A DNA stretch of 32,000 nt from Xanthomonas campestris pv. campestris str. ATCC 33913. GTDB lineage: Bacteria; Pseudomonadota; Gammaproteobacteria; Xanthomonadales; Xanthomonadaceae. The notes under the pieces are model-generated. The model was given only the letters and a program-made list of their open reading frames with translations, did not search any database and was not told the origin of the DNA. Position numbers and translations under genes: made by a program. The stretch is from positions 2,576,497-2,608,496 of the forward strand of contig NC_003902.1 of NCBI RefSeq assembly GCF_000007145.1. The letters run 5' to 3'. Below, in pieces: positions 9,260 through 31,002 of this stretch. Position 1 is the stretch's first letter, and every line of letters begins with the position of its first letter.

Positions 9260-9265
9260 ACGTAC

Positions 9266-9949: not shown

Positions 9950-10038
9950 GGGAAGACTTGCTTTTTTCGACTGACACATCGGAATCGGCCCGGGCAAGCC
10001 CGGGCCGATCCATCACGCTCTCAAAGAGCGCTACGCGC

Positions 10039-14649: not shown

Positions 14650-14727
14650 CCCGTATTGTTCCGGCCGGCAGGCCGGCGTTCCACCATGGCGCGCTACCCT
14701 GTGCGCCACCTAGCAGGACGAGTAGCC

Positions 14728-15612: not shown

Positions 15613-15618
15613 CCGCGC

Positions 15619-16146
15619 ATGCCCGTCGAGCTGCGTGAGGTCCGCGACGCGGACATCCCGGCGATCACCGCGATCTACGCGGAGCAGATCGCCGGGTGCA
15701 ACACCTACGAATACGTCGCGCCGTCGGCCGAGCAGATGCGCGGCCGCGTGCGCGCCATCGTGGACGCCGGTTATCCGTATCTGGTGGCCGAACGCGATGG
15801 CGCGGTGATCGGGTACGCCTACGCAAGCAGCTACCGCGCACGCGCCGGCTACCGCTGGACGGTGGAAAATTCGATTTATCTGGCCGCTGCCGCGCAAGGA
15901 TGCGGCATCGGTTCGCAGCTGCTTGGCGCCTTGATTGCCGTCTGCGAGCAGCGCGGCTACCGGCAGATGATTGCCGTGATCGGCGATGCCACCAACCAGG
16001 CGTCACTGCGCCTGCATGAACGTTTTGAGTTTCGTACGGTCGGAGTCTTCACCGGACTGGGCCGCAAGCATGGCCGCTGGTTGGACGCGGTGCAGATGCA
16101 GCGCCCGCTCGGCTCCGGTCACACCGCCCCTCCTTCCGATGAATGA
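15619..16146 (+). CDS. GNAT family N-acetyltransferase (phosphinothricin/methionine-sulfoximine acetyltransferase-like)
   Basis: 175 aa. IREVRDADIPAITAIY...YLVAERDGAVIGYAYASSYRARAGYRWTVENSIYL...QGCGIGSQLL...HERFEFRTVGVF...GRWLDAVQMQR matches the PAT/YwnH-type GNAT pattern. Confidence 0.85.
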   Translation: MPVELREVRDADIPAITAIYAEQIAGCNTYEYVAPSAEQMRGRVRAIVDAGYPYLVAERDGAVIGYAYASSYRARAGYRWTVENSIYLAAAAQGCGIGSQLLGALIAVCEQRGYRQMIAVIGDATNQASLRLHERFEFRTVGVFTGLGRKHGRWLDAVQMQRPLGSGHTAPPSDE

Positions 16147-17371: not shown

Positions 17372-17418
17372 GTTGGGGGAGCGCGGCCGCCGCATCAGCA
17401 GTTGATGCGGTCCTACCG

Positions 17419-17504
17419 TTGTAGGAGCGCACCTGGACGCAATGGTGACTTGCGCGACTGACAGCTGGAATAGGCAGCCTGATCGCGCCCAACTACGCTC
17501 CTAC
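17419..17504. repeat. REP-like intergenic palindromic element (GTAGGAGCGCAC type)
   Basis: Lies in the convergent gap between TraB and the EEP gene. GTAGGAGCG (17421-17429) is repeated inverted as CGCTCCTAC (17496-17504). Internal GCGCA...TGCGC dyads are present, and an adjacent 8-bp hairpin CCGCATCA/TGATGCGG sits at 17390-17410. It resembles the GTAGGAGCGCAC...GTGCGCGAC repeats that I recall as abundant in Xanthomonas. Copy number cannot be checked here. Confidence 0.35.
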
Positions 17505-17518
17505 GACGAGGGCTGCTG

Positions 17519-18457
17519 CTACGGGGCGGCAGCCGTCTCCGGCGCGAATTGCAGGCGTACCCACACCCCGTAATGGTCCGAGGCCCAGCGGCCTTCGGCA
17601 TACGGGGTGTCGAACAGGATGCGCGCCTCGCGTGCGAGCAGGCGGTTCTGCTGGAAGAACACGTGATCGATGCGCGCGGGTTTGTCGAACACATGCAGGT
17701 TCAAGGTGCTGACAGTTGCATCGCTGTTGCGGTGCACGCTGCCATAGCTGTCGCCATAGCCCTTGCGTAGCGCTTCCAGATCCAGGGTATCGGCCGCAGT
17801 GTTGAAATCACCGGCGATCACCACCGGCGCCTGGTTGCTGTTGGACGCGATGAAGTCCAGCAAGTCGGCCACCTGGCGGGTGCGGGTCGCCGCACCGCGC
17901 GCATCGGACCGCTCGTTGAGATGCGTCACGTAGACGTTGACCGGCTGGCCATCCATATCAACCTGCAGATGCGCGGCCACGCGGTAATCGTCCAGCGGTT
18001 GCAGCAGGCGCTGATGCTGGGCCAGCACGCTGCGCTTGCTCAGCAGCGCGTTGCCATAGCGCTTGGGCGCGCCGGGCGGGTCGACCGATGCGAACGTGTA
18101 CGCGTAGCCAAGCCGACTGGCCAGCCAGGCGGCCTGATTCTCCACACTGCCGCGGCGTTCGATCACTTCCTGCAAGGCGATCACATCCGGCGCCAGCTGT
18201 TTGAGTTCCTTGGCGATATAGGCACGGCGTGCCGGCCAGTCTTCGCGGTCGTGATGCAGGTTGAGGGTGACCAGGGTCATCTCGCGCGGGGCCGCGCTGG
18301 CGGTTTGCTGCGAGCGCGATGTTTGTTCTGCGTTCTGGACGTTGGCTTGCTCCGCGTGCGCACCCGTGCAGGACAGGGCCAGCACCATCAACACACCGAA
18401 CCGGCCGCGATAGCGCCGCGACGTTGTTGCCCGCAACGACCGGCGCCACGTGTTCAT
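17519..18457 (-). CDS. Secreted endonuclease/exonuclease/phosphatase (EEP) family protein
   Basis: 312 aa from ATG 18457, which overlaps the upstream stop as ATGA. The signal peptide MNTWRR...VLMVLALSCTGAHA|EQ has AxA cleavage, with a possible lipobox. EEP motifs are present: TLVTLNLHH, DVIALQEV, VYVTHL, VIAGDFN, SDHYGVWV. The 613-aa track ORF (to 19360) is an artefactual 5' extension into the neighbouring gene. Confidence 0.85.
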   Translation of the reverse strand: MNTWRRSLRATTSRRYRGRFGVLMVLALSCTGAHAEQANVQNAEQTSRSQQTASAAPREMTLVTLNLHHDREDWPARRAYIAKELKQLAPDVIALQEVIERRGSVENQAAWLASRLGYAYTFASVDPPGAPKRYGNALLSKRSVLAQHQRLLQPLDDYRVAAHLQVDMDGQPVNVYVTHLNERSDARGAATRTRQVADLLDFIASNSNQAPVVIAGDFNTAADTLDLEALRKGYGDSYGSVHRNSDATVSTLNLHVFDKPARIDHVFFQQNRLLAREARILFDTPYAEGRWASDHYGVWVRLQFAPETAAAP

Positions 18458-21400
18458 TGCGCGGCCCGTTCGGCCCGCCGCACCGCGCTCGGCACGTCGA
18501 TCTGCACGGAGGCCGGCAACTGCTGGATGCGCAACTCGCCATTCTCCCACTGCACCGCCTCGCCATTGATGCTGGCCTTGCCCGGTTCGCCCTGATACGG
18601 CCAGGCAAACACCACGCCGCCGGGCGGCAGGATCAGGCCGGGCTGCAGCTGCAGCACCAGCTGCTTGTCGGTGCGCTGCAAGGTGTAGTTGAGGCGGCCA
18701 TAGGGCGTGCGCAGCTCGGCAATGCCAATGCCCTTGCCGTCGAACCAACGCGTTGGCGTGCCGGCGGCAATCACCAGGCTGGCGTCGGCCTCGCGCCCGT
18801 AGGCAAACATGTCCAGCACCGAGCGCACGAAGTCCGAAGCCACCCATGCATGCGGTAGGTCGCCAACGAAGAACGGCGTGCGCGGCGTACGCGAGACCAC
18901 TTCGGCCCACTGGTTCCAGGGCTGCGGCGCGCGGTCCTTGAAGAAGAACGCGGTGGCATCCCAGGCGCGGTCGCGCCAGCCCAGGCGCACGAATGCAGCC
19001 ACGTTGCGCCATTCGTACGGCGTGTAGTCCTTCCATTCGCGCTTGCTGTCGCGGCGATCGGTGAATTCCTTCCAGTACCGCTCGAAGGTGTTGTTCAACA
19101 GCTCCGGCGGCAGGCGCTGCTGCTCGCCACCGGGCGCCAGCGCGATGGTGGTGGAGGTTGCATCGAAGTCGCCCAGTTCCGCCGAACCGGGCAGGAAATC
19201 CAGCTGATGCTGGCGTACCGCCGCCGCCAGCGAGGCGGTGAGATCGCCGCTGAATTCGTCGCGGGCGGTGCTGAAGCGCGCAACCTCGTCGGGCTTGTCC
19301 AGCGCACCGGCCAACATCACCGCGTCCTTGTAGCCGCGCAGCGCCCAGAAGTTGTCCCAATACGAATGCACCGGCTTGGCCGAATAGCCTTCGTGGCTGA
19401 TCGACACCGGCATCATTCCGTAGAAAGCCGGGTTACGCATGAAGTTGTCTTCGGTGCGCTCGCTGGCGCGCAGCTTTTCCATGTAGTCGTACGCGCCGAG
19501 CACGTGCGGCCACATCTTTTCCAGGAACGGCTTGTCGCCGGTGTAGCGGTAGTACTCGGCGACGTTGAAGATCAGCTCGCCATGGCTGTCGTTTTCCGGC
19601 ACCGGGTCGCTGCCACGGTCGTCCACGCAGCACGGCACCATGCCGTCGGCAAATTGATACGGCGCAAACCAGTCGACGTAGTCACGCACCACGTCTTCGC
19701 GGCCGAGCCGCAGCAGGCCTTCGGAAATCATGGCGCCGTCGCGGATCCAGCTGCGCGAATATGAGCGCGTGCCCGGCTGCAGGCGCGGGCCGATGCGCGA
19801 GATCAGCATGTGCGCTAACGCGGTACGCAGCGTATCGACAACCGGCTTGCCTTCGGCCGGCACGCTGATGCGCACGCGATCGAGCTTGCCGCGCCACTGC
19901 TGGGCCACTTGCTGCTGCGCCTTGTCGGCATCGAAGCCGGCCGGCAGCTGCGCGCTGCCGGTCTGCGGAATGACCAGCGCAACCTCGCGGCTCTGGCCCG
20001 GCTCCAGCTTCCAGCGATACACCAGCACGCCCGAGGCCAGCCCGGTTTCGTCCTTGACCTGCGTGGTTGTGGGCAGCGTCGCGGCGGTGAGATGGGTGAC
20101 ATCCATGCCGCTGTCGAAGGCGCTGGCGAAGGCGGCATCCGGCCGCTGCGCGGCAAACACGCGCGGCTTGCCGTTGACGTTGACCTGCGCCCCGTCCACC
20201 GACAACTGCTCGATGCGGCTGATGCCGCCCAGGGTGTTGAGGAACTGCGCCGGCGGGTTGACCTGGAACGGCCGTACCGCCAATGCGAGGGTGAACTCGC
20301 GCGCGTCCTTGCCGGTATTGCGCAGCTGATAGCGCGCGACCAACTGTGCCTGATCAGGAGTGCCCTGCACGAAGCCGGTGATGCGCAGGTTCATGAGGTC
20401 GTGGTGCCAGTCGACGCTGGGGATTGGCAGGTAATCGTCCTGCAGGCTTTGTTCGCTGCTGACATCGGCCCAGCGCAACAGCTTGCCGCCGACACTGACG
20501 AACGGCTCCACGCTGAAACCGCCCTTGCCCACTTCCACCGCGCCGTCTTCGCCGATCAGGCCTTGCTCGGTGCCGCCATCCAGGCCGAGGATGGTCCAGT
20601 ACGGTTGCTCGCCGGAAAACCCGCGCGGAAAGTTGCCACGCGGCGATTGCGTCGCCAGCGATTTGATGAAGTCATTCGGCGTCGCGGCGAAGGCCAGCGG
20701 CTGCAGCTGCACTTCCTTGATGCCATAGCGCCAGTTGGGACCATCCTTGAGATCGAAACGCAGGTAGCGCGCCTCGGTATCCGGCAAGGCCAGCCAATCG
20801 GTGCCGCCGGCGCCGGCGATGACCGTGCGCAGGTCGCGCCAGCTACGCCCATCGCTGGACGACCGCACCACGTACTGCGATGCCTGCAGGCCCGGCACCC
20901 ACTGCACGATGGCACCGCCGAACTCGCGCACCTTGCCCAGGTCCAGGGTCACCGTCTGCTGTTTGACTGCGCCGCTGAGCCAGAAGGTGTCCGGCTTGCC
21001 ATCGGCCAGACGCTGCTCCAGCGCCGGTGCGGTGTCGGTAATGGCCTCGGCCTTCAACGGCGAGGTGTCCTCTGGCGGCAACGGGGTCAGGGTCAGGCGG
21101 TCGAAGCACACCGAGCCCTTGCCACCGACCTTGTTGTAGATGGTGAACTCGACATCGGCACTGCTGCGCAACTGCTTGTCCGCGCCTGGGCCCCAGGCCT
21201 TTTCGATGTTGCGCTTGCGGTAGTTGAAGGTGGTCCAGGTCTTGGGGAAAGTGAAGCCCGGCCGGTTGATCCACCACACGTTGTCGCCGCTGGCATCGAT
21301 CAACTTGACCTGCAGATCGTTGGACGGCGACTCGCCGCGTAGCGCAAAGCCAATGCGGTAGTTGTCCGGAAACTCGATCGGCAGGCTGCGGCGGATGCCG

Positions 21401-21618
21401 ACATAGCCAGACACGCCGTTGAAGTTGTAGTCCAGGCACAAGGCGTGGCCGCCGGAGGTGGTTGCTACCGGGCGCAGCGAGCCGCTGACCTGGTTGGAGA
21501 CCACCAGCCGCCACGCGGCGATGTCGTTGAATCCGTCGAGCACGCGCTCCTGCGCCTGTGCCGCACCCGCGGTGGCAACAGCGGCCATGGCAAACAGTCG
21601 CAGGAAAATTGGCTTCAC
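18454..21618 (-). CDS. Large secreted multidomain protein: N-terminal CBM-like beta-sandwich + F5/8 type C (discoidin/CBM32-like) domain + central beta region + putative (alpha/alpha)6 glycoside-hydrolase-like domain
   Basis: 1054 aa from GTG 21618, which overlaps the permease stop as GTGA. The signal peptide is VKPIFLRLFAMAAVATAGAAQA|QE. A discoidin-like segment lies at about aa 190-308 (…DGKPDTFWLSG…QTVTLDLGKVREFGGAIVQW…SQYVVRSSSDGRSWRDL…ARYLRFDL…GIKEVQL). The C-terminal half carries SWIRDGAM (nt 19732-19749), ENDSHGEL and YWDNFWALRGY, reminiscent of six-hairpin glycosidases (GH15-like W-x-RD-A). The catalytic assignment is inference. Confidence 0.8.
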   Translation of the reverse strand: MKPIFLRLFAMAAVATAGAAQAQERVLDGFNDIAAWRLVVSNQVSGSLRPVATTSGGHALCLDYNFNGVSGYVGIRRSLPIEFPDNYRIGFALRGESPSNDLQVKLIDASGDNVWWINRPGFTFPKTWTTFNYRKRNIEKAWGPGADKQLRSSADVEFTIYNKVGGKGSVCFDRLTLTPLPPEDTSPLKAEAITDTAPALEQRLADGKPDTFWLSGAVKQQTVTLDLGKVREFGGAIVQWVPGLQASQYVVRSSSDGRSWRDLRTVIAGAGGTDWLALPDTEARYLRFDLKDGPNWRYGIKEVQLQPLAFAATPNDFIKSLATQSPRGNFPRGFSGEQPYWTILGLDGGTEQGLIGEDGAVEVGKGGFSVEPFVSVGGKLLRWADVSSEQSLQDDYLPIPSVDWHHDLMNLRITGFVQGTPDQAQLVARYQLRNTGKDAREFTLALAVRPFQVNPPAQFLNTLGGISRIEQLSVDGAQVNVNGKPRVFAAQRPDAAFASAFDSGMDVTHLTAATLPTTTQVKDETGLASGVLVYRWKLEPGQSREVALVIPQTGSAQLPAGFDADKAQQQVAQQWRGKLDRVRISVPAEGKPVVDTLRTALAHMLISRIGPRLQPGTRSYSRSWIRDGAMISEGLLRLGREDVVRDYVDWFAPYQFADGMVPCCVDDRGSDPVPENDSHGELIFNVAEYYRYTGDKPFLEKMWPHVLGAYDYMEKLRASERTEDNFMRNPAFYGMMPVSISHEGYSAKPVHSYWDNFWALRGYKDAVMLAGALDKPDEVARFSTARDEFSGDLTASLAAAVRQHQLDFLPGSAELGDFDATSTTIALAPGGEQQRLPPELLNNTFERYWKEFTDRRDSKREWKDYTPYEWRNVAAFVRLGWRDRAWDATAFFFKDRAPQPWNQWAEVVSRTPRTPFFVGDLPHAWVASDFVRSVLDMFAYGREADASLVIAAGTPTRWFDGKGIGIAELRTPYGRLNYTLQRTDKQLVLQLQPGLILPPGGVVFAWPYQGEPGKASINGEAVQWENGELRIQQLPASVQIDVPSAVRRAERAAQ

Positions 21619-22451
21619 CCCTTCACACTCCCCAGCAGAAGACCTTGGATGTAGTAACGCTGCAGCGCCAGGAACAATAGCAGCACCGGAATCACCGTCA
21701 CCACCGCGCCGGCCATCATCAATTCCACGTCCATGATGTGCTCGCGCGACAATGCGGCCAGCGCCACCGGCAAGGTGTATTGCTCCTGGTCGGTCAGCAC
21801 GATCAGCGGCCACATGAAGTCGTTCCACGAGCCCATGAAGGTGAAGATGGTCAAGGTGACAAGCACCGGCTTGAGCATCGGCAGCACGATCTGGAAGAAG
21901 ATCCGCATCTCGCTGGCGCCATCGATGCGTGCCGCTTCGATCAGCTCATCGGGAATGCTGCGCGCGTACTGGCGCACCAAGAAGATACCGAACACGGTGG
22001 CCAGTGCCGGCACCACCACCCCGCCGATGTTGTTGACCAGATGCAGCTGCTTCATCAGCAGGAACAGCGGCAGCATCGCCACCTGCGCCGGGATCACCAG
22101 CGCGGCCATCAGGATCTTGAAGATGCGCTCGCGGCCGATGAACTGCAGCTTGGCAAACGCGTAGCCGGCCATGGTGTTGATCAGCAACGAGCCCAGCGTG
22201 ATCAGCCCCGACACCATCAGGCTGTTGGCGAAGTTGCGCGCCATGCCGGTGCGGGCGAACAGCTCGTGGTAGTTGGCCAGGGTGAACGCCGACGGCAGCA
22301 TCGGCGGCGGAAACCGGCTGGCCTCGCCGGTGGGCATGAACGACACCGACAGCATCCACAACAGCGGCGCCAGGCTGACCAGCGCCAGCAGCAACAACCC
22401 GCCATTGATCAGCAGGCCATTCCAGCGCGATTCGCCCACATCACGACTCAT
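21615..22451 (-). CDS. Carbohydrate ABC transporter permease (MalG/CUT1 type)
   Basis: 278 aa from ATG 22451 (ATGA overlap with the upstream stop), with six hydrophobic segments and the EAA loop IEAARIDGASEMRIFFQIVLPMLKP. The 405-aa track ORF is a 5' over-extension. Confidence 0.9.
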   Translation of the reverse strand: MSRDVGESRWNGLLINGGLLLLALVSLAPLLWMLSVSFMPTGEASRFPPPMLPSAFTLANYHELFARTGMARNFANSLMVSGLITLGSLLINTMAGYAFAKLQFIGRERIFKILMAALVIPAQVAMLPLFLLMKQLHLVNNIGGVVVPALATVFGIFLVRQYARSIPDELIEAARIDGASEMRIFFQIVLPMLKPVLVTLTIFTFMGSWNDFMWPLIVLTDQEQYTLPVALAALSREHIMDVELMMAGAVVTVIPVLLLFLALQRYYIQGLLLGSVKG

Positions 22452-23332
22452 ATCAGGTCCTTCTTGCGCCCGAAGCGCAGCATCACGGTGGTCACGGTCA
22501 GGATGATCAGGAACAGCAGGAACGCCACCGCCGACGCGCGGCCGAGGTTCCACCACTTGAAGCCTTCCTCGAACATGAAATACAGCACGCTCACGGTGCT
22601 TTGCAGTGGGTCGCCGCGGGTCATCACATAGGGTTCGGCGAACAGCTGGAAATAACCGGAGATGGTGATCACACCGACCACCATCAGCACCGGGCCGAGC
22701 ATCGGCAAGGTGATGTGCAGGAACTGCTTCCAGCGCGAGGCACCGTCGATGCGCGCCGCCTCGTAGAGGTCTTGCGGGATCGCCTGCAGGCCGGCCAGGA
22801 AGATCACCATGTTGTAGCCGAAGTTCTTCCACACCGCGAACAGCATGATGGTCGGCATTGCCCAGCGCGGATCACCCAGCCAGTCGATCGGGGCGATGCC
22901 CAGGTGGCTCAGGCCGAAATTCACCAGGCCGTACTTGATGTGGAACAGGTAGCGCCAGATCACCGCGACTGCCACCAGCGTGGTGACCACCGGCGCGAAC
23001 AACGCGGTGCGGAACAAGGCCTTGAACCGCGAAGCCTTGGCATTGAGCAGCAGCGCCGCGCCCAGCGACACCGCGATGGACATCGGTACGCCCAGCAGCA
23101 CGAAGTAGGTGGTATTCCACAGCGACTTCCAGAACAGCGGCGTCTGCAGCAGCTCGATGTAGTTGCCCAGGCCGACGAAGCGCAGATGGCTGCTGTCGGC
23201 CAGTGCGTACAGGTCGAAGTCGGTGACGCTGAGCACCAGCGCGGCGAACACCGGCACGCCGAAGAACATGCCCAGCACCAGGATCGACGGCGCGGCGAAG
23301 ACCCAGCCGGCCACGGAGTTGCGCTTCATCAT
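22448..23332 (-). CDS. Carbohydrate ABC transporter permease (MalF/CUT1 type)
   Basis: 294 aa with the EAA loop LYEAARIDGASRWKQFLHITLPMLGP. Its start ATG overlaps the SBP stop (ATGA). Confidence 0.9.
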   Translation of the reverse strand: MMKRNSVAGWVFAAPSILVLGMFFGVPVFAALVLSVTDFDLYALADSSHLRFVGLGNYIELLQTPLFWKSLWNTTYFVLLGVPMSIAVSLGAALLLNAKASRFKALFRTALFAPVVTTLVAVAVIWRYLFHIKYGLVNFGLSHLGIAPIDWLGDPRWAMPTIMLFAVWKNFGYNMVIFLAGLQAIPQDLYEAARIDGASRWKQFLHITLPMLGPVLMVVGVITISGYFQLFAEPYVMTRGDPLQSTVSVLYFMFEEGFKWWNLGRASAVAFLLFLIILTVTTVMLRFGRKKDLI

Positions 23333-24675
23333 CGGGCAGCTCCTTCAGCCGCTGCATTCGCCGGCGCAGGCATCGGCGTGGCCGGTGCGGCCGCCGGGCC
23401 GACATGCCCGCCTTCCTGTTCGTAGATCCAGCGGCGCTTGGCCAGAATCTCGTCCACGCGTTTGTCCAATTCCTGCACGGCGTCCTCGTGCGATTGCCCG
23501 CCGCGCACCACGCGCTCGGTCACCAGGCGCATCTCCTGCACGATGCGCTCCCACTCCAGCACCTTCGGCGTGGCCTTGACCCGCTCGAGCTGGTCGCCGA
23601 AGGCATGCGCCAGCTCGTCATTGGCCAGCGACGGCAACTTCCAGGTGCTGCGGCGCGGCGGCAGGTCGCCGATGATGGCGTGGAAGCGCGCCTGCACGGT
23701 CGGCTGGGACAGATATTCGATCAGCTTCCAGGCGGCGTCCTTGTGCTGGGACGACTTGAAGATCACCAGGCTGGAGCCACCCGCAATGCCGGCACCCAGG
23801 CCGTTGGGGCCCGGCAACGGCGCGGTGCCCCACTTGCCTTCCATGCCCGGCGGCTGGCGCAGCTTGAACTCGCGCACGTTCCAGGGCCCGGACAGGTAGA
23901 ACGCGTAGTAGCCGTTGAAGAATTCGTACCAAACGTTGGAGACCTGGGTCTCGGAGACCTTGGGTGCCCAGCCCTTCTGGTACATGGTGTCGTAGAAGCC
24001 CAGCGCCTTGCGGAAGCCTTCTCCACGGAAGTTGCCGTAGTTATCGTGGTCGCGTAGCAGGCGGTCGTCCTGCTGCAGCGCAAACGACAGCTGCTGCTCG
24101 AACTCGTTGAGCGGCATCAGGATGGCGTAGCGGTCCGGGCCGACATGGCGCTTGATCGCCGCCATCACCTGCTCCATCTCCGCCCAGGTCTTGGGCATCT
24201 CGGTATAGCCGGCTTCGCGCAGCAAATCCTTGCGATAGAACAACAGGCGCGTGTCCACGTACCACGGCACCCCGTACAAGGTGCCGTCGACCAGATTGGT
24301 GTCCCATACGCCGGGGAAGTAGTCCTTGGGATCGACGATGCTCGAGCGCGCCACATACGGCTGCATCGGCTCCAGCGTGTCCAGCAGCGCGAATTCCGGC
24401 AGCCAGGTGTTGCCGAGCTGGCACACATCCGGCAGCCCATCGGCGGCGAAGGCGGTGAGCAGCTTTTCGTGCGCGGCCGTCATCGGGATGTTCTGCACAT
24501 CCACCTTGATGCCGGGATTCTGCCGCTCGAACTCATCCACCAGCTCGGCCACCACCTCCGCTTCCTTGCCCATCGCCCAGAAGCGCACGGTGGTCTGGCC
24601 CTGCTCGGAACGTTCACATCCCGCCGCACCCAGACACAGTGCGGCGGCCATCATCATCAGTTTCAAAAGGCGCAC
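23329..24675 (-). CDS. Extracellular solute-binding lipoprotein of a sugar ABC importer (family 1 SBP)
   Basis: 448 aa from GTG 24675, 3 nt after the upstream stop. It has a lipoprotein signal (M)RLLKLMMMAAALCLGAAG|C and an SBP_bac_1-like core (…TVRFWAMGKEAEVVAELVDEFERQNPGIKVDVQNIP…WYVDTRLLFYRKDLL…). The C-terminus is an Ala/Pro-rich tail. Confidence 0.9.
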   Translation of the reverse strand: MRLLKLMMMAAALCLGAAGCERSEQGQTTVRFWAMGKEAEVVAELVDEFERQNPGIKVDVQNIPMTAAHEKLLTAFAADGLPDVCQLGNTWLPEFALLDTLEPMQPYVARSSIVDPKDYFPGVWDTNLVDGTLYGVPWYVDTRLLFYRKDLLREAGYTEMPKTWAEMEQVMAAIKRHVGPDRYAILMPLNEFEQQLSFALQQDDRLLRDHDNYGNFRGEGFRKALGFYDTMYQKGWAPKVSETQVSNVWYEFFNGYYAFYLSGPWNVREFKLRQPPGMEGKWGTAPLPGPNGLGAGIAGGSSLVIFKSSQHKDAAWKLIEYLSQPTVQARFHAIIGDLPPRRSTWKLPSLANDELAHAFGDQLERVKATPKVLEWERIVQEMRLVTERVVRGGQSHEDAVQELDKRVDEILAKRRWIYEQEGGHVGPAAAPATPMPAPANAAAEGAAR

Positions 24676-24678
24676 GGA

Positions 24679-26316
24679 TTACTCGGGTTTGGGGCGTTGC
24701 GAGGAGTGTTGCCGCTGCGACGGGTCCTGCTGCGCCTGGGCAGCGGCCGCACGCGATTCGGCCATGCCCAGCGCGCGCGCTGCGGCGGCCTGCTCGTCCT
24801 TCTTGGGCAGCGGCTGCGGCTCGCCGTCGGGCGTGAGCCAGCCACCGGTGAAGCCGGCGCGTTCCAGGCCGGTACGGATGTAGGCGTTCTTCTTCATCAC
24901 GTTCCAGACAAATTCGTTCTGGTAGTTGGCGATCATCGCCAGGATCGGGCCCTGGTCGATGGCGATGTAGTCGCTGGCCACCCAGCCACGGTCCGGCACC
25001 ATGCGCCCGGTCTTGAGCGGGATGTCGTAGTTGAAGCTGGGGTTGAACGAATCCAGGAAACCATAGCTCGAATACAGGAAGTCGCCATAGCGCTTGTGCA
25101 TCTCTTCGGTGGCCGGAATCACCACCTCCGGTGCGAACACGATCGAGGAAATCGCCGCGGTTGGCGCGATGGTGCCGTCGTCGAAGTTCTCGCGCAGGCC
25201 GGCGCCGCGTGAAGAGTAATGGCGGAACTGGCGCTGCTCGCCGCGGTATTCCTGGCTGGTGTTCTGCGGGCCGTCGCCGGCGGTGAGGCCCCAGACGTTT
25301 TCGCCATAGTCCTTCCACTTCATCGGGTTATCGATGGCGTAGTCGCGCTGGGCCAGCGTGGCGCGGCGGCTGTTGAGGAAGTAGTCGATGCCGCGCTCGC
25401 GCATGTACTGGTCCTGGATATCGCGGAAGTCGATCCAGACATGGCTGTACTGGTGGCCGAACATCGGGCCGAAGGACAGGTATTCCTGGCCCTGGTAGAC
25501 GCCCCAGTCGTTGTTGTAGGTGCGGGTCCAGACCGTCCACGCATCCGGCTCCACGCCGTGCGTGGGCGAGCCGAGCGCCAGGATGTACAGCATCATGGCT
25601 TCGTTGTAGCCCATCCAGTCGTGGTCGATGAAGCCGCTCTCGGGGAACCAACCCATCGAGATCAGCGGCGCCCGCTGCTGCAGCCAGCGCCAGTCCACAC
25701 GCTTGTACAGCGTGTCGGCGATCTGGCGGATTTCCTTTTCGCGCGGGTCGTCACCGTCGTAGTACGACTGGGTGAACAGCACGCCCATCATCAGCAGCGC
25801 GGTGTCCACGCTCGACAGCTCGACCCAGCTGTCATAGCGGTTGCCCTGCTGCATATCCAGAAAGTGATAGTAAAAGCCCTTGTAGCCGGCCTTACCGGTC
25901 CGCTGCGGCCCCATCGGCGCATCGCGGAAGAATTTGAGGGTGGTCAAGGTGCGGTCGATCGCCTGATTGCGGCTGACCCAGCCGTTCTCGATACCGATCG
26001 GATACGCGGTGAGCGCAAAGCCCACCGAGGCGATGCTGGCGAACGGACGCGAGGGAAACCGGTCCGGCGACAGCCCATTGAGTTCGTTGGTGGTGTCCCA
26101 GAAAAACTGGAAGGTGCGGCGTTCGATATCGGAAAACAGCGGCGGCAGCGGCGGCTTGACCGGCTTGGGCGGAATCTGTGCTTCCACCAGGATCACTTTC
26201 ACGGGTGCCTTCTTTTCAGCCACCTTGGGCTCCTCGGCCTGTTTGCAGGACGCCAGCAACAGCGCCCCCACCATCAGTGGAACTGCCAGCCAACGCGATG
26301 TCTTACCCCTGTTCAT
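24679..26316 (-). CDS. Lipoprotein of the PF10091 'glucoamylase-like' / CAZy GH144 family (predicted beta-1,2-glucanase-type enzyme)
   Basis: 545 aa from ATG 26316, preceded by GGGGGGCGG. The lipoprotein signal is MNRGKTSRWLAVPLMVGALLLAS|C. The conserved blocks are those I associate with the DUF3131/GH144 (alpha/alpha)6 fold: FFWDTTNELNGLSPDRFPS, SVGFALTAYPIG, GFYYHFLD, MGYNEAMMLYILALGSP, FGHQYSHVWIDFR, WGLTAGDGP and DGTIAPTAAISSIVFAPE. The upstream GTG 26352 would place the LacI operator inside the coding region and is rejected. Confidence 0.8.
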   Translation of the reverse strand: MNRGKTSRWLAVPLMVGALLLASCKQAEEPKVAEKKAPVKVILVEAQIPPKPVKPPLPPLFSDIERRTFQFFWDTTNELNGLSPDRFPSRPFASIASVGFALTAYPIGIENGWVSRNQAIDRTLTTLKFFRDAPMGPQRTGKAGYKGFYYHFLDMQQGNRYDSWVELSSVDTALLMMGVLFTQSYYDGDDPREKEIRQIADTLYKRVDWRWLQQRAPLISMGWFPESGFIDHDWMGYNEAMMLYILALGSPTHGVEPDAWTVWTRTYNNDWGVYQGQEYLSFGPMFGHQYSHVWIDFRDIQDQYMRERGIDYFLNSRRATLAQRDYAIDNPMKWKDYGENVWGLTAGDGPQNTSQEYRGEQRQFRHYSSRGAGLRENFDDGTIAPTAAISSIVFAPEVVIPATEEMHKRYGDFLYSSYGFLDSFNPSFNYDIPLKTGRMVPDRGWVASDYIAIDQGPILAMIANYQNEFVWNVMKKNAYIRTGLERAGFTGGWLTPDGEPQPLPKKDEQAAAARALGMAESRAAAAQAQQDPSQRQHSSQRPKPE

Positions 26317-26330
26317 CCGCCCCCCACTCG

Positions 26331-26344
26331 TGTAATCGATTACA
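26331..26344. promoter_or_regulatory. LacI-family operator O1, perfect 14-bp palindrome TGTAATCGATTACA
   Basis: Exact self-complementary 14-mer that fits the LacI/GalR consensus TGnAAnCGnTTnCA at all 10 specified positions. It lies 15-28 nt upstream of the GH144-like start codon. Its left half TGTAAT doubles as a -10-like hexamer on either strand. Confidence 0.6.
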
Positions 26345-26381
26345 TCTCGCACGCAAACCTACCCTATCCGGGCGCCGACTT

Positions 26382-26411
26382 CGACCGTCCTGGCACCTGC
26401 CAGGACGGTCG
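26382..26411 (-). terminator. Strong GC hairpin just after the TBDR stop (terminator/attenuator or mRNA-processing structure, no U-tract)
   Basis: CGACCGTCCTGGCA-CC-TGCCAGGACGGTCG, with 14 complementary positions (about 11-12 bp of effective stem and a 4-6 nt loop). It starts 9 nt downstream of the TAA at 26420-26422. On the minus strand AAGTCGGCGCC follows, with no U run. Confidence 0.45.
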
Positions 26412-26419
26412 CGTGCTCC

Positions 26420-29398
26420 TTACCAGTTCAGACCGAAGGCCAGACGGAAGGTGCGCATCGGCGATGCCAGCACGCCGGTTGGCGTGCCGTATGCCGTGTT
26501 CAAGTCACCGAGTGTCCCGGTCTCGCCGTTAAAGTTGGCGTAGTTCACCCAATTGAACACGTTGAGGATATCCGCACGGACGTTGAATTTGACACCGCCA
26601 CCGGTATCCCATTCTTTATTGGCCGCAATGCTGAACTCCTTGTAGCCCAGCGTGCCGTCCGGCTTGAACTGCACGATGTAGCACTGGTCGTTGCCGGCCA
26701 GACAGTTCTGCCCGTAGCGCGCGGTCTGGCTGGCAAGCGACAACTTGCCGGACAGCTTGATCTCATACGGCAGCTCGTAGATGCCGGTTACGACCAGACG
26801 GTTCTTGGCAATACCGCCGGCCTCGCGCCAGCCGTAGTCTTCGACGCGCTCGCGGTCCAGTGCGTAGTGCTCGCCGAACTGGCGGTTCTCCTTGGCATCG
26901 GAGAAGGTGTAGGCCACGGTCAGACCCCATCCGGATTCTTCGTCGTAGGGCTTCTCGATCTGCAACGCGAGCTGGTTGTTGCGGGTTTCCACACCATTGG
27001 TGCCGAGCACGATGGCGCTGTAGCCGTCCGGGCCGTCGGTCGGCGAGCCGGAGGTGGTGCCCGGCAGGAAGAACGAGCCATCGGGCAGCCGGTTGCCGCG
27101 CACGAAGGCGAAGCCGTCATGACTTTCGATCCGGCTCAGGGTCACGTCGGTGAACCAGTCCTGGCCCCATAGCGGCACCATGTTGCGCATGCCGATGCTG
27201 AATTGGTCGGAGTACGGGGTCTTGATGTTGTTGTCGATCAGGTAGACCTCACGACCACCGCCGCCGGCGCTGTTGGCGGTGAGGGTGTTCAGGCCTTCCT
27301 GCGTGCTGTAGGCCGGGTTCCATGCCGTACATGGGTCGCCCAGGCAGGCCGGGTTGTTGGCACTGGTGAAGTAGTAGCTATACGAATTGAACGAGTTGTT
27401 GAGCTGCTCGAGCGCCAGGTAGTCGAAGATGTTGCGGTCATAGGCACGCCCGGCACCGCCGTAGATCACGTGGGCCTGGTCGCCGAACAGGTCGTACGAC
27501 GCACCCAGGCGTGGCTGCCAGGCGTTCTTGAACGCCTTGCGGTTGTTGCCGGTGCTGATGAAGTTGTTGATGTTGTAGTTGGCGTTCTGCAGGTTGGGCC
27601 AGTTCTGCAGCGCACCGGCCACATCCGACGGGGTCACGAAGTCCAGGAACGCCGGGCTTTCTTCATAGTCGTAGCGCACGCCCAGGTTCAAGGTCCAGTG
27701 CTCGTTGACCTCCCAGTCGTCCTGCAGGTAGATGCCGTACTGCTTGTTCTTGGACACCACCGAGCCGCCGCCTTCGGTCAACGGCGCACCAAAGCGCACC
27801 CGGTACGGCGTTTCGACATCGGAGAGGATGTTGTAGTAGTACTGCGGGTTGGCCGGGTTGAACTGGGTGGAATCCAGATCGATGCTCTTGAACTTCACGC
27901 CCATCTTGACGGTGTGCGCGCCATGCCATTCCAGGCTGTTCAAGGTCAGGTCGTCCTGGAAGGTCCAGCCCTTCTGGCCCTTGCGCTGGAAGCTGCTGCC
28001 GGCGCCGGCAGCGAGCACGTCGGTCTCGTTGCCACGGTTGGGCGTGTAGCTGAGCACGTAGCCCGTGCCGTCGTTGAGCGGCGCCTGGTTCCAGAACGCG
28101 CTCTCGTAGCTGAGGTTGGCTTCGTTGAGGAAGTTGGCACCGCTGTACTGCCAGCGCAGGTTGGCGCGCTTTTCTTCCTGGCCGTTGACGCTACCGTGCT
28201 CGAAGGTCGAGGTCTGGCCGACGTCGTTGAGCTCGTCTTCCTTGCGGTACTTGCCGGTCAGCTCGAACAGGTTGTTGTCGCCAATGGTCCAGTCGATCTT
28301 GCCGAAGTACAGGTCTTCCTTGAACGGGGTGCTGTAGGTAGCCACCAGCGGCTGCAGCTGCGCCGGCAGCTGGTCGATGCGGTCCGAGTAGATCGAGCCA
28401 GGAATCACCACGTTGGGGGTGGTGTATTCCTTGGCTTCATAGGCAATGAAGAAATGTGCCTTGTCCTTGAGGATCGGGCCGCTGAAGGTCGCACCGTACT
28501 GGGTTTCCTCGAAGTCGTCGCGCACGCCGGCCTTCTTCTCCAGCGGGCTCTCTTCGCGCCAGCCATCGTTGCTGGTATCCCAGAAGAAGCTGCCGTGGAA
28601 ATCGTTGGTGCCGGACTTGGACGAGGCCACGATGGCGGCGCCGCTGACCTGGTCGAACTCGGCCTTGTAGTTGGAGGTGATGACCTTGTATTCGCCGATC
28701 GCCGACTGCGGGAACGGGTTGCCGCGGCTGGAATCCTGGCCGCTGACGCCGCCGGTCAGCACGTAGTTCTTCTGGCTGACGCCATCGATGTAGACATTGG
28801 TGCCTTCAGCCGAAGTGGCGCCCGAGCGCACCTTGGTGGTGCCGTTGGCATCACGGGTGAACTGCACGTTCGGCACGGTGTCGGCCAGCTCCAGGAAGTT
28901 GCGCGTGGCACGCGGCAGGTTCTGGATCTGCACGTTGGAAATATACGTCGCGTTCTCGGAGGTGCGCGTCTCCACCAGCACCGGCGGCGCCTTGACCTGC
29001 ACCGCGTCCAGCGTGGTGGCGTTACCACCTGCGGCCGTGGCCGGCTCGCCGCCGACGCCCAGGTTCAAGGTGGCGGTCTGGCCGACCTGCACGGTGACGT
29101 TCTGCGAGGTGGTCTGCCCATTGGCGGTGACATCCAGGCGGTACGAACCCGGCGGCAGGCCGCCAACCGAATAGCCGCCATTGGTGACCTGCACGGTGCG
29201 GGTCAGGCCGGTGGCCAGATTGGTGGCGGTGACCTGGGCCTGGGCAGCAGGTGCGGAGTCGACCGTGACCTGGCCGCGGATGGTCGCAGCGGTGCTCTGC
29301 GCGAACGCGGGCGCGGCGCCCAGCAACAGGCAGCTGGCCAGGGCGCAGCTGAGCAGCTTGCGCGCCGGGCTGGCGGAATGGGGGTGGTGGTGGCTCAT
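26420..29398 (-). CDS. Oar-like TonB-dependent outer-membrane receptor with N-terminal carboxypeptidase-regulatory-like domain
   Basis: 992 aa from ATG 29398, with GGAGGG 6 nt upstream. The signal is MSHHHPHSASPARKLLSCALASCLLLGAAPAFA|QS. A CarbopepD_reg-like beta-sandwich follows (TIRGQVTVDS...GGYSVGGLPPGSYRLDVTANGQ), then a plug region (TLDAVQVKA...ETRTSENATYISNVQIQNLP), a long beta-barrel and the terminal aromatic motif ...RLAFGLNW. The 47-aa extension of the track ORF is rejected. Confidence 0.9.
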   Translation of the reverse strand: MSHHHPHSASPARKLLSCALASCLLLGAAPAFAQSTAATIRGQVTVDSAPAAQAQVTATNLATGLTRTVQVTNGGYSVGGLPPGSYRLDVTANGQTTSQNVTVQVGQTATLNLGVGGEPATAAGGNATTLDAVQVKAPPVLVETRTSENATYISNVQIQNLPRATRNFLELADTVPNVQFTRDANGTTKVRSGATSAEGTNVYIDGVSQKNYVLTGGVSGQDSSRGNPFPQSAIGEYKVITSNYKAEFDQVSGAAIVASSKSGTNDFHGSFFWDTSNDGWREESPLEKKAGVRDDFEETQYGATFSGPILKDKAHFFIAYEAKEYTTPNVVIPGSIYSDRIDQLPAQLQPLVATYSTPFKEDLYFGKIDWTIGDNNLFELTGKYRKEDELNDVGQTSTFEHGSVNGQEEKRANLRWQYSGANFLNEANLSYESAFWNQAPLNDGTGYVLSYTPNRGNETDVLAAGAGSSFQRKGQKGWTFQDDLTLNSLEWHGAHTVKMGVKFKSIDLDSTQFNPANPQYYYNILSDVETPYRVRFGAPLTEGGGSVVSKNKQYGIYLQDDWEVNEHWTLNLGVRYDYEESPAFLDFVTPSDVAGALQNWPNLQNANYNINNFISTGNNRKAFKNAWQPRLGASYDLFGDQAHVIYGGAGRAYDRNIFDYLALEQLNNSFNSYSYYFTSANNPACLGDPCTAWNPAYSTQEGLNTLTANSAGGGGREVYLIDNNIKTPYSDQFSIGMRNMVPLWGQDWFTDVTLSRIESHDGFAFVRGNRLPDGSFFLPGTTSGSPTDGPDGYSAIVLGTNGVETRNNQLALQIEKPYDEESGWGLTVAYTFSDAKENRQFGEHYALDRERVEDYGWREAGGIAKNRLVVTGIYELPYEIKLSGKLSLASQTARYGQNCLAGNDQCYIVQFKPDGTLGYKEFSIAANKEWDTGGGVKFNVRADILNVFNWVNYANFNGETGTLGDLNTAYGTPTGVLASPMRTFRLAFGLNW

Positions 29399-29456
29399 TG
29401 GTCCCTCCAGGGATCGATATCTTGTTGTTGTGGGCACTAAGGTCTTGCAGGAACAA

Positions 29457-29477
29457 CCGCTGCGGGGGAGGCAGCGG
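29457..29477 (-). terminator. Weak hairpin between lacI and the TBDR gene (possible partial terminator)
   Basis: CCGCTGC(29457-29463)/GCAGCGG(29471-29477), a 7-bp stem with a 7-nt loop. On the minus strand TTGTTCC follows, a poor U-tract. Confidence 0.25.
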
Positions 29478-29504
29478 GAGCGGACAGGACGTCCGCGAAA
29501 AGGG

Positions 29505-30527
29505 TCAGGCGCCGGGCTCGCCGGCTCCGCAGGACGCACGCACCACCAGCTCCGGGGTGAGCAACTGGCGGATGCCGTCGTCGTGGCCGGGCTGGTCCAC
29601 CAGCCGCATCAGACGGGTCATCGCCTGCTCGCCAAGGCGCGCAATGCTGACCCGCATCGTGGTCAGCGCGGGGTGCACGAAGCGCGCCAGCGGGATGTCG
29701 TCGAACCCGGCCAGCGCCACGTCGTCGTGCACCGACACATCCGCCTGGGCGAAGGCGTACAGGCAGCCGAGCGCGGTCATGTCATTGGCAGCGAAGACCG
29801 CATCGGGCAGATCCCCGGCGGCCAGCATGGCAAGGCCGGCGCGATGGCCGGAGGCTTCGTCGAAGTCGCCGGCGAATTCGAGCCCCTCCGCTCCGCCCGC
29901 ATGGCCGGCGATCGCGTCACGGAAGCCGCGCAAGCGCTCGCGCGCATCGAAGTTCAGCGCCGGCCCGCCGATGAAGGCGATGCGGCGGTGCCCGGCAGCA
30001 AGCAGGTGCTCGGTCATCGCCATTGCGCCGGCGTGGTCGTCGATGCTCAGCACCGGGTAGTCGGCGCCCGGCAGATGCGCGTTGATCAGGACGGTGGGCA
30101 GTGCCTGCGGCAGGTTGTCGGTGAGAAAACCCGGCTGCTCGGCGTACGGGGACAACACCAGCAAGCCATCCACGCGGCCGCGCATGGAACGCAGCGCCCT
30201 GCCCTGGGCTTCGGGATCGCCGTGGTAGCTGGAGACCAGCAAATGCTGCCCGGCCGCACGCGCCGCCCCATCGATGCCGCGAATCAGTTCGGAAAAGAAC
30301 TCGCCGTACAGATCAGGCAGCACCACACCCAGGGTCTGGGTGCGCCGGCTGCTGAGGCTGCGTGCCGCCGCATGCGGGCTGTAGCGCAGGCGTTCGGCCA
30401 CGTCCAGGACCACCTGGCGCACCGGCCCGGCGACGTTGTCGTGCCCATTGAGCGCCCGCGATACCGTGGCAACGGAGACGCGTGCTTCTCGAGCGACATC
30501 TTTGATGGTGACCGCACCTTTGGCCAT
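29505..30527 (-). CDS. LacI family transcriptional regulator
   Basis: 340 aa from ATG 30527, with GGAGGG 8 nt upstream. The N-terminal HTH MAKGAVTIKDVAREARVSVATVSRALNGHDNV is the LacI/PurR signature. The remainder is a periplasmic-binding-protein-like sugar-binding fold (…LGVVLPDLYGEFFSELIRGI…IAFIGGP…). Confidence 0.9.
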   Translation of the reverse strand: MAKGAVTIKDVAREARVSVATVSRALNGHDNVAGPVRQVVLDVAERLRYSPHAAARSLSSRRTQTLGVVLPDLYGEFFSELIRGIDGAARAAGQHLLVSSYHGDPEAQGRALRSMRGRVDGLLVLSPYAEQPGFLTDNLPQALPTVLINAHLPGADYPVLSIDDHAGAMAMTEHLLAAGHRRIAFIGGPALNFDARERLRGFRDAIAGHAGGAEGLEFAGDFDEASGHRAGLAMLAAGDLPDAVFAANDMTALGCLYAFAQADVSVHDDVALAGFDDIPLARFVHPALTTMRVSIARLGEQAMTRLMRLVDQPGHDDGIRQLLTPELVVRASCGAGEPGA

Positions 30528-30571
30528 TCGGGTCGCCCTCCGCGACCGACTTCCCAAAATCTGGCGCGGAC

Positions 30572-30585
30572 TGTAAGCGTTTTCA
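30572..30585. promoter_or_regulatory. LacI-family operator O2 (TGTAAGCGTTTTCA)
   Basis: Matches TGnAAnCGnTTnCA at all specified positions and lies 45-58 nt upstream of the lacI ATG. It is the exact reverse complement of O3, and the identity extends to 15 nt (30571-30585 versus 30618-30632). Confidence 0.55.
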
Positions 30586-30609
30586 TACGGAGGCGTAAAC
30601 CCCTGTGAA
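30582..30609 (-). promoter_or_regulatory. Candidate sigma70 promoter of lacI (and possibly of the whole locus)
   Basis: On the minus strand, TTCACA (30609-30604), a 16-nt spacer, then TATGAA (30587-30582). The -10 overlaps O2, and O3 lies just upstream of the -35. This is a hexamer-match call only. Confidence 0.3.
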
Positions 30610-30617
30610 TGGGCTTG

Positions 30618-30631
30618 TGAAAACGCTTACA
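30618..30631. promoter_or_regulatory. LacI-family operator O3 (TGAAAACGCTTACA)
   Basis: Full match to TGnAAnCGnTTnCA. Its centre lies 46 bp from the centre of O2, in inverted orientation. Confidence 0.55.
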
Positions 30632-31002
30632 GATCAAGCATCTAGAAGTGATGGATGCGTGAATAAGTATGCTGCGTCGCAACAACCCCGCAGCGATTGC
30701 TCCACAGACGAAGCGCGACGCCGGTCTCGTTGGCGCCACGGGATGACGCCGCGACTGACGCATGGACAGCAGCGGACAGGTCAGTGTTTGCAGGCGTCGC
30801 GCAGGGCCAGCAGCGCCTTGATTCGCTTGGGCAAAGGCGCGAGTCGTGCGCGCTTGGCGAGCGTCAGCCTGACCGCCCGCTTGATGATTCAGGCAGCTGC
30901 GGCCCCGATCTTGGAGATCACAAGAAAGCTGCAACCAGCATGGTCCTGCCTCGCAATCGCTTCCGGCCAACCAGTCAGAACCGGATTGACCGAACGGTCG
31001 CC

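Follow-up and report, generated by a model that had tools for sequence, protein, structure and literature searches.

We analysed a stretch of 32,000 nucleotides from Xanthomonas campestris pv. campestris (Xcc) str. ATCC 33913 (contig NC_003902.1, positions 2,576,497 to 2,608,496 of the forward strand; hereafter the window, with coordinates counted from its first letter). Its minus strand very probably carries a LacI-repressed, TonB-dependent system for the uptake and breakdown of beta-1,2-glucan, organised as a carbohydrate-utilisation (CUT) type locus. An earlier note, made from the sequence, had tentatively proposed the use of beta-1,2-glucan or sophoro-oligosaccharides, and this proposal is supported by the published biochemistry of an identical enzyme, XcSGL, together with the homology of the transporter's binding protein to Lin1841. 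Both the locus (listed in 2007) and its key enzyme (characterised in 2025) are already in the literature, and we found no published work that links the locus listing with the glucanase characterisation. The remaining value of the finding lies in the protein family of XCC2203, and less so in the EEP-family protein encoded next to it. Judged from its sequence and gene neighbourhood, XCC2203 is a strong candidate to represent a new family of glycosidases associated with beta-1,2-glucan.

The open reading frame (ORF) listing and a Pfam scan of the window place eight consecutive co-directional genes on the minus strand, from 30527 to 17519. They are the X. campestris pv. campestris cluster XCC2202–XCC2209; the genes were identified as XCC2209 (LacI) down to XCC2203 because the product of the glycoside hydrolase family 144 (GH144) gene matches PDB 8XUL/XCC2207 and AAM41487.1. 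Read from the sequence, the starts are ATG 30527 for lacI, ATG 29398 for the TonB-dependent receptor (TBDR), ATG 26316 for GH144, GTG 24675 for the solute-binding protein (SBP), 23332 and 22451 for two permeases, GTG 21618 for XCC2203 and ATG 18457 for EEP, and the last stop lies at 17519. Gaps of 106, 103 and 3 bp separate lacI from the TBDR gene, the TBDR gene from GH144, and GH144 from the SBP gene. All four other junctions, from SBP through EEP, are 4-nt overlaps, and these genes are therefore coupled. The eight genes with their domains, the gaps of at most 106 bp and the overlaps had all been described in the earlier note, and each is present. The cluster thus combines, in one orientation, a TBDR and an inner-membrane transporter with an enzyme that degrades carbohydrate and a regulator related to sugars, the four gene classes whose clustering makes a CUT locus in the definition of Blanvillain et al. 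(2007). The same authors entered XCC2203–XCC2211, including XCC2209, as a "putative partial CUT locus" in their Table S3 (PMC1790865), in agreement with the architecture that the note had recognised. That source also records orthologues of the locus in Xcv, Xac, Xoo and Sphingopyxis, and a Xylella version without TBDR and LacI. We class the cluster as a complete CUT-type locus whose substrate would be a bacterial glucan.

The glucanase indicates the substrate. XCC2207 (24679..26316, minus strand, 545 aa) is the GH144 endo-beta-1,2-glucanase XcSGL. It matches PF10091 with E = 2e-90, the test that had been set beforehand for this product, and PDB 8XUL with 1252 bits, and its residues 73–498 are identical at 426 of 426 positions to AAM41487.1 of ATCC 33913. 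The SGL-clan residues E239, F286 and Y367 (XcSGL numbering) are all present. Purified XcSGL showed 3.85 U/mg on beta-1,2-glucan alditol, with no activity detected on any further polysaccharide assayed, and had a pH optimum of 5.0 (Nakajima et al. 2025, PMC12102758); a crystal structure with bound Sop7 is available from the same work. The protein has a classic lipobox, LLAS|C, and an Ala/Gln/Pro-rich C-terminal tail of about 55 residues (24679–24840 region) that UniProt annotates as disordered.

The transporter points in the same direction. XCC2206 (23329..24675, minus strand) is the SBP (SBP_bac_1) of a CUT1-type ATP-binding cassette (ABC) importer. Its best PDB match is 3UOR, the X. citri orthologue (917 bits), which the literature cites merely as a structural comparator. 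Lin1841 follows with E = 1e-67 over residues 28–413, whereas the nearest maltose, acarbose and trehalose binders reach 5e-34 or weaker. Lin1841 is a Listeria protein that binds Sop3–5 (PMC12369401), and by homology XCC2206 probably binds sophoro-oligosaccharides as well. It had been called an SBP lipoprotein: the SBP assignment stands on SBP_bac_1, and the lipoprotein assignment is only probable, as the lipobox AAG|C is non-canonical. The permeases XCC2205 (22448..23332) and XCC2204 (21615..22451), both on the minus strand, carry BPD_transp_1, with sub-threshold NCBIfam matches to UgpA and MalF for the former and to UgpE and MalG for the latter. A cluster-B SBP is thus combined with two permeases of the MalF/MalG type, as in CUT1-type importers.

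XCC2203 (18454..21618, minus strand) is an exported multidomain protein of 1054 aa and a putative glycosidase of unclassified family, recognised by its F5/8 type C domain, an AlphaFold2 model and synteny. The model, built from 29 homologues, has a predicted local distance difference test (pLDDT) score of 81 and a predicted TM-score (pTM) of 0.78. A Sec signal peptide (residues 1–22, ...AQA|QE) is followed by a beta-sandwich resembling carbohydrate-binding module family 11 (CBM11-like, 25–180), a CBM32 module (190–306), a further beta-sandwich (340–551), an (alpha/alpha)6 barrel (564–938) and a C-terminal beta-sandwich (939–1041). The CBM32 module matches PF00754 at 1.1e-14 and CBM32 modules in the PDB at 5e-9. 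In sequence comparisons with the PDB, using either the single protein or the 29-sequence profile, matches were limited to CBM32 and none fell on the catalytic part. When the model was compared with the PDB by Foldseek, a GH15-like dextran dextrinase (9JU0) came out on top, and other neighbours were GH94 phosphorylases (cellobiose phosphorylase), cyclic glucan synthase, GH116, GH78, GH95 and GH65. The hits span E values of 1e-14 to 1e-10, target-normalised TM-scores of 0.37 to 0.56 and identities of 8–15%. Such neighbours are generic and do not suffice to separate alpha- from beta-acting families.

Sequence models did not place the barrel in a known family. XCC2203 passes no curated threshold among Pfam glycosidase models or NCBIfam: GDE_C reaches 17.4 bits (cutoff 21), Bac_rhamnosid6H 15.1 (cutoff 24.5), GH95 13.2 (cutoff 27) and the GH15-like TIGR01577 31 (cutoff 821; E 8.7e-8). 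The sub-threshold GDE_C match recurs in 24 of 29 family members, with a best E of 3e-6. A divergent paralogue within the SGL clan was also considered and rejected at the sequence level, the hhalign probability against GH144 being 0.3%. By sequence, XCC2203 is outside every family tested, namely GH15, GH63, GH65, GH78, GH94, GH95, GH116, GH133 and GH144. Its own family is large, with 2690 clusters at 50% identity for E <= 1e-3 and 913 for E <= 1e-30. Among 123 members with 39–60% identity, 59 positions are conserved in at least 97%; they include R618, Y620, R622, W624, R626, D627, E675, D677, H742, E743, D755, D817, D819, E869, E906, D920, H923 and W925. Such conservation fits an active enzyme. 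The motif SWIRDGAM looks similar to W-x-R-D, a motif of GH15 and GDE. A crude hydrophobicity heuristic detects a signal-like N-terminus in 100 of 122 distant family members. Searches of the literature by locus tag, covering Xcc and orthologues, returned nothing on XCC2203, the EEP protein or the transporter. The large discoidin/(alpha/alpha)6 protein and the EEP protein, which the earlier note could not assign to any characterised pathway, are both uncharacterised as far as this literature goes.

The gene neighbourhood ties XCC2203 to beta-1,2-glucan. We compared 80 loci retrieved from Lysobacterales and a distant set of ten loci with XCC2203 homologues of about 40% identity. The order GH144-SBP-permease-permease-XCC2203 is kept in all of the 80 Lysobacterales loci where the flank suffices; GH144 was found in 68, TBDR in 60 and LacI in 55 of them. 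The longer order LacI-TBDR-GH144-SBP-permease-permease-XCC2203 is common to Xanthomonas, Stenotrophomonas, Pseudoxanthomonas, Luteimonas and Lysobacter. In seven of the ten distant loci the XCC2203 homologue (X in the following gene orders) adjoins an independent beta-1,2-glucan marker, either GH144 or 1,2-beta-oligoglucan phosphorylase (SOGP). The arrangement is TBDR ... GH144-X-GH2-GH144-SBP-permease-permease in Ignavibacteriales (L081), TBDR ... GH144-X in Bacteroidota (L082/L083) and GH94-GH2-GH144-GH144-SBP-permease-permease-X in another locus from Bacteroidota (L084). L085 reads LacI-TBDR-GH144-SBP-permease-permease-X-MalK, with the MalK-like gene directly after X, and a locus from Longimicrobiales (L089) has TBDR-GH144-SBP-permease-permease-X, the same order as Xcc. 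A metagenome (L090) has GH144-X-GH2, and Kiritimatiellia (L088) has LacI-permease-permease-X-SOGP, where the SOGP gene carries SOGP-specific Pfam domains. A short contig (L091) shows permease-X, and the flanks of the homologues in L086 and L087 hold no beta-1,2-glucan marker. Because a marker adjoins in seven of ten distant loci, we regard XCC2203 as a conserved component of beta-1,2-glucan loci; as far as predicted gene content shows, it occurs together with genes for beta-1,2-glucan in at least five bacterial phyla. We judge it highly likely that the substrate of XCC2203 derives from beta-1,2-glucan.

Several details of these loci are worth recording. The Kiritimatiellia member of the XCC2203 family is a protein of 2547 aa with at least four tandem CBM32 modules, and its gene is followed directly by the SOGP gene (L088, 10001–17644). 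In Lysobacter and Luteimonas (L073, L050, L078 and L061; about 13100–17500, opposite strand), genes of the PF01182 6-phosphogluconolactonase family lie directly 3′ of the XCC2203 orthologue, so that the locus appears to abut glucose-catabolism genes there. A locus labelled Nocardiopsis yanglingensis (L029) has the full Stenotrophomonas-type order at Stenotrophomonas-like identities and probably comes from a contaminated or mislabelled assembly.

The receptor gene XCC2208 (26420..29398, minus strand) encodes an Oar-like TBDR of 992 aa. Its barrel matches OMP_b-brl_4 at 1.2e-48 and TonB_dep_Rec_b-barrel at 1.5e-12, and CarboxypepD_reg forms an N-terminal extension. Blanvillain et al. class it as 'Ps-TBDR/Oar-like', lacking a canonical plug, and their Table S1 gives it 992 aa, signal-peptide cleavage at 33–34 and a TonB box TLDAVQV at residue 96 (PMC1790865). 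Weak Plug matches occur in distant orthologues of XCC2208, and a sequence search against solved structures found no relative.

The regulator XCC2209 (29505..30527, minus strand, 340 aa) has a LacI helix-turn-helix domain (PF00356) and a periplasmic-binding-protein-like effector domain (Peripla_BP_1, Peripla_BP_3); its NCBIfam matches, to RbsR, GalR and similar proteins, are all sub-threshold. Together with central-CG palindromic candidate operators, these sequence features are those of a LacI/GalR repressor. The pattern TGNAANCGNTTNCA matched at the three sites that the earlier note had proposed as LacI-consensus operators. O1 (30618..30631, minus strand) reads TGTAAGCGTTTTCA on the gene strand and lies 5′ of lacI, where an equivalent site is kept in Lysobacterales. 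Its inverted partner O2 (30572..30585, minus strand; TGAAAACGCTTACA on the gene strand) lies 45 nt before the lacI ATG. O3 (26331..26344), a perfect palindrome with the sequence TGTAATCGATTACA, precedes the GH144 ATG by 15 nt. By itself the number of sites is weak evidence, modestly above chance: 0.74 were expected, and three were reached in 4 of 100 shuffles. All three fall within the two promoter regions, and equivalent sites stand 5′ of lacI and 5′ of the GH144 or TBDR gene in more than 20 orthologous Lysobacterales loci. This placement and positional conservation make the operators credible. In Lysobacter-type loci the second operator stands before the TBDR gene instead. O3 also bears on the start of XCC2207. 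The database start GTG 26352 (557 aa) would put O3 within the coding sequence, whereas a start at the second Met (ATG 26316, 545 aa), for which there is a G-rich ribosome-binding site, keeps O3 in the promoter region. As O3 falls between the two, the shorter start is supported, and Nakajima et al. chose it on other grounds (PMC12102758).

The spacers of the locus also contain secondary structures. In the lacI/TBDR spacer, a terminator-like hairpin (29457..29477, minus strand; -14.1 kcal/mol, z = -3.4) is followed by TTGTT. Directly after the TBDR stop lies a perfect 13-bp GC-rich hairpin without a T-run (26383..26410, minus strand; -29 kcal/mol, z = -4.8), which none of 200 shuffles matched in folding and which may be a Rho-independent-like transcript boundary, an RNA stabiliser or an element of the repetitive extragenic palindromic (REP) type. 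The 147-nt spacer from the EEP stop to a convergent GumN/TraB-family gene (17372..17518; -66.8 kcal/mol, z = -4.2) folds as a long imperfect hairpin with a second stem. It is likely the 3′ end of the operon and may be a bidirectional terminator or repeat element. The operators, the hairpins after lacI and the TBDR gene, and the structure behind EEP together suggest at least two transcription units, one with lacI and perhaps the TBDR gene, the other running from GH144 to EEP. A scan of 17000–31000 for sigma-70 promoters returned no site.

The last gene (17519..18457, minus strand; XCC2202 by position only) encodes an exported EEP-family phosphodiesterase of 312 aa (PF03372, 1.7e-27); an ATGA overlap couples its translation to that of XCC2203. 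The protein has a signal peptide (...AHA|EQ) and then a low-complexity linker (18280–18400 region) that is variable and differs widely in length among species. The metal-binding and catalytic motifs of the EEP superfamily are present, and their residues N66, E97, H179, D217/N219, D264/H265 and D294/H295 do not vary among 22 homologues. In Foldseek, its model is closest to generic phosphodiesterases (TDP2, 3TEB, neutral sphingomyelinase and nocturnin), which give no clue to the substrate, and NCBIfam yields weak matches to exonuclease III and ExeM/NucH. The gene adjoins the XCC2203 orthologue in 31 of the 80 Lysobacterales loci, in X. campestris-type and S. maltophilia-type lineages. In loci that lack it, we found no replacement gene 3′ of XCC2203, only the opposite-strand 6-phosphogluconolactonase-family genes and spurious high-GC ORFs. 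From its distribution and predicted features, EEP is a lineage-restricted accessory exported phosphodiesterase. Cyclic glucans and osmoregulated periplasmic glucans (OPGs) can bear phosphoglycerol or phosphoethanolamine, and EEP may remove such phosphodiester-linked substituents. Genes for a PF01663 (Phosphodiest) and for PF00149 (Metallophos) proteins adjoin the distant loci L084 (14905–16548) and L085 (16077–17030 and 17312–18760). These phosphoesterases, which may be analogues of EEP or lie there by coincidence, are a weak hint at the removal of phospho-substituents from glucans.

An alternative is that EEP is an unrelated passenger, for example an exported nuclease or lipid phosphodiesterase, co-transcribed in one lineage. 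Its adjacency in just 31 of 80 loci speaks for this, with Pseudoxanthomonas, Lysobacter, Luteimonas, X. translucens and X. albilineans lacking the gene here, and so do the DNA/RNA phosphodiesterases TDP2 and nocturnin as nearest folds and the exonuclease-type NCBIfam matches. However, the ATGA overlap with XCC2203 persists throughout Xanthomonas, the adjacency is kept in Xanthomonas, Stenotrophomonas and several other Lysobacterales, and two of the distant loci have phosphoesterases, of families unrelated to EEP, beside them. A passenger role is a serious possibility that we rate at somewhat less than an even chance. For XCC2203, one candidate activity follows from what GH144 leaves behind. 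GH144 enzymes cut both linear and cyclic beta-1,2-glucans, yet alpha-1,6-cyclised glucans treated with CpSGL (GH144) and the beta-glucosidase BtBGL end up as a 'non-degradable glucopentaose' (bioRxiv 10.1101/2025.04.21.649730). We found no enzymes degrading glucohexadecaose in the literature. Because of this resistant glucopentaose and the weak GDE/GH15-type signals, XCC2203 might be a glycosidase that cleaves the one alpha-1,6 linkage in alpha-1,6-cyclised beta-1,2-glucans or attacks the remnant containing it, completing a breakdown that GH144 and beta-glucosidase leave unfinished. The sole sequence hints for the barrel, all sub-threshold, do lead to alpha-acting families (GDE_C, that is amylo-alpha-1,6-glucosidase, as well as TIGR01577, GH78, GH95 and a GH63-like signal), the likeness of SWIRDGAM to W-x-R-D fits as well, and the dextran dextrinase heads the structural neighbours. 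However, the beta-acting GH94 and GH116 are equally among these neighbours, all at 10–13% identity, and the linkage to GH144 and SOGP extends to phyla for which nothing we saw points to contact with alpha-1,6-cyclised glucans. We consider this activity unlikely. Improbable, too, is the most far-reaching form of the idea, in which XCC2203 founds a new GH family breaking the alpha-1,6 junction, the locus is a complete pathway for turnover and recapture of alpha-1,6-cyclised beta-1,2-glucohexadecaose (CbG16a), and EEP strips phosphodiester substituents from foreign glucans. At least as likely, though likewise only a tentative choice, is a second beta-1,2-directed activity that tailors chain length to the Sop3–5 range of the transporter. 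Candidates for such an enzyme are a sophorohydrolase or glucosidase of exo type, an endo-glucanase that opens rings or is specific for polymer, an enzyme that debranches beta-1,6-branched periplasmic glucans, and a phosphorylase. The tight cross-phylum linkage to GH144, SOGP, SBP and permease genes fits this, as do the CBM11-like and CBM32 modules, which suggest polymer binding, the high structural ranking of GH94 phosphorylases, cyclic glucan synthase with its phosphorylase part among them, and the many invariant arginines and histidines of the barrel (R618, R622, R626, R855, R871, H742 and H923). Against it stand the missing sequence relation to GH144 and, at the Pfam level, to GH94; the need for another endo-enzyme is not obvious either, given the range of GH144, and an exported phosphorylase would, to our knowledge, be unprecedented.

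Several observations weigh against the reading of the region as a beta-1,2-glucan uptake and breakdown system. No ABC ATPase (ABC_tran, MalK/MsiK-type) was found among the window ORFs scanned, and the one serving the importer must be encoded elsewhere in this organism. The same ORFs include no cytoplasmic beta-glucosidase or phosphorylase, as had been noted before. XCC2208 has no match to the Pfam Plug domain (PF07715) and belongs to the pseudo-TBDR class of Blanvillain et al.; their Table S4 gives it reporter ratios of about 1 or below, in columns whose conditions are unassigned, and beta-1,2-glucan is not among the inducers named in that paper (PMC1790865). By eye, the spacer 5′ of the TBDR gene in the window contains no operator, and this, with the terminator-like hairpin after lacI, leaves the control of the TBDR gene unclear. 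The tie between the locus and beta-1,2-glucan in vivo is drawn from the enzyme and from homology. Finally, Xylella and X. albilineans retain GH144, SBP, permeases and XCC2203 but have neither TBDR nor LacI, and the core function therefore does not depend on import across the outer membrane. This point also favours the view that the core function is to turn over the periplasmic and secreted CbG16a that the cell itself makes, for example after an osmotic shift, rather than foraging, the TBDR and LacI being a later add-on that recaptures secreted glucan. The export signals on GH144, XCC2203 and EEP suit such a role, and Xanthomonas does make CbG16a (PMC11228985). However, Bacteroidota, Ignavibacteriales and Kiritimatiellia have this gene set too, with TBDRs and with GH144s tagged for the type IX secretion system (T9SS), as is typical of foraging loci, and 60 of the 80 Lysobacterales loci have a TBDR. 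The two roles are not mutually exclusive; turnover as the core function is rather doubtful, though somewhat less so than an alpha-1,6 activity of XCC2203.

Under the favoured reading, a system for beta-1,2-glucan uptake and breakdown, glucans or large sophoro-oligosaccharides would pass the outer membrane through XCC2208. The lipoprotein XcSGL, whose activity in vitro is known from the literature, would cut glucans outside the cytoplasm; with its pH optimum of 5.0, it would suit the periplasm or the plant apoplast. XCC2203 would bind glucan through its CBM11-like and CBM32 modules and hydrolyse some structure that GH144 leaves, a role suggested by the conserved synteny. By analogy with Lin1841, XCC2206 would bind oligosaccharides of Sop3–5 size, and XCC2205 and XCC2204 would import them with an ATPase encoded elsewhere. 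Conversion to glucose would follow in the cytoplasm, by enzymes encoded outside the window. XCC2209 would bind the two operators 5′ of its own gene and the palindrome before the GH144 operon, and the imported oligosaccharide presumably releases it from them.

The rest of the window was also inspected. Positions 1–12600 hold housekeeping and envelope genes, including a Kef-type cation/proton antiporter (2268–4118), a CapD/WbpM-like polysaccharide-synthesis gene (5186–7093), a GT4 WecA-like gene (7107–8141), a LapB-like TPR/rubredoxin protein (8081–9259), rpsA (10039–11949) and cmk (11903–12583). Two adjoining ORFs of 371 and 395 aa on the minus strand (13594–15897) have no Pfam match; the pair recurs with 60–77% identity in the same relative position in nine Xanthomonas-type loci. 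The convergent gene at 15986–17371 (plus strand, 461 aa) belongs to the TraB/PrgY/GumN family (PF01963, 1e-26) and is syntenic with the locus in 9 of the 80 loci, only in X. campestris-type genomes. Rfam and tRNA scans of the window gave no matches.

In Xanthomonas, the alpha-1,6-cyclised beta-1,2-glucan serves virulence by suppressing the immunity of the plant. Immune responses of plants are triggered by linear beta-1,2-glucans (PMC11630039). As both glucan forms have a role in plant immunity, a regulated system for cutting and re-import could set the amounts that the plant sees. The locus could thereby determine how much linear versus cyclic glucan the plant meets, and it could allow a costly polymer to be recycled. 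What is new here is a large, exported and unclassified (alpha/alpha)6 family that travels with GH144, SOGP and sophoro-oligosaccharide transporter genes. The activity of XCC2203 would probably define a new CAZy family and could explain how the GH144-resistant remnant of the cyclic glucan is degraded.

Finally, we compared the locus with known systems. It shares with the Xanthomonas CUT loci for sux, xylan, maltose and pectin (Blanvillain et al., 2007) the conserved clustering of a CAZyme and a sugar-family regulator with a TBDR and a transporter of the inner membrane. Unlike in those loci, the substrate is a bacterial glucan and not a plant carbohydrate, and the receptor is an Oar-like 'pseudo-TBDR' lacking a Pfam Plug match; where the sux locus uses a major facilitator superfamily (MFS) transporter, a binding-protein-dependent ABC system without its ATPase is found here. 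The GH144 CAZyme of the present locus was a 'hypothetical protein' in the 2007 listing. The Listeria innocua cluster lin1839–1841, which encodes SOGP (GH94), a GH3 beta-glucosidase and the sophoro-oligosaccharide-binding protein Lin1841, has the homologous SBP (E = 1e-67) and two permeases in common with the Xcc locus, and its pathway is likewise dedicated to sophoro-oligosaccharides (PMC12369401). Listeria is Gram-positive and hence has no TBDR; its cluster encodes a cytoplasmic phosphorylase and beta-glucosidase, which the present window does not, whereas the Listeria genes named in PMC12369401 include no GH144, XCC2203-type protein or EEP. With regard to GH144 enzymes such as CpSGL of Chitinophaga pinensis and XcSGL, the glucanase of the locus is XcSGL itself, to which its genomic system and operator are added here. 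With the multidomain (alpha/alpha)6 enzymes (9JU0, GH94, GH116, GH78, GH95 and GH65), XCC2203 shares the succession of an N-terminal beta-sandwich, the barrel and a C-terminal beta-sandwich, and it differs from them by its additional CBM11-like and CBM32 modules and its signal peptide.

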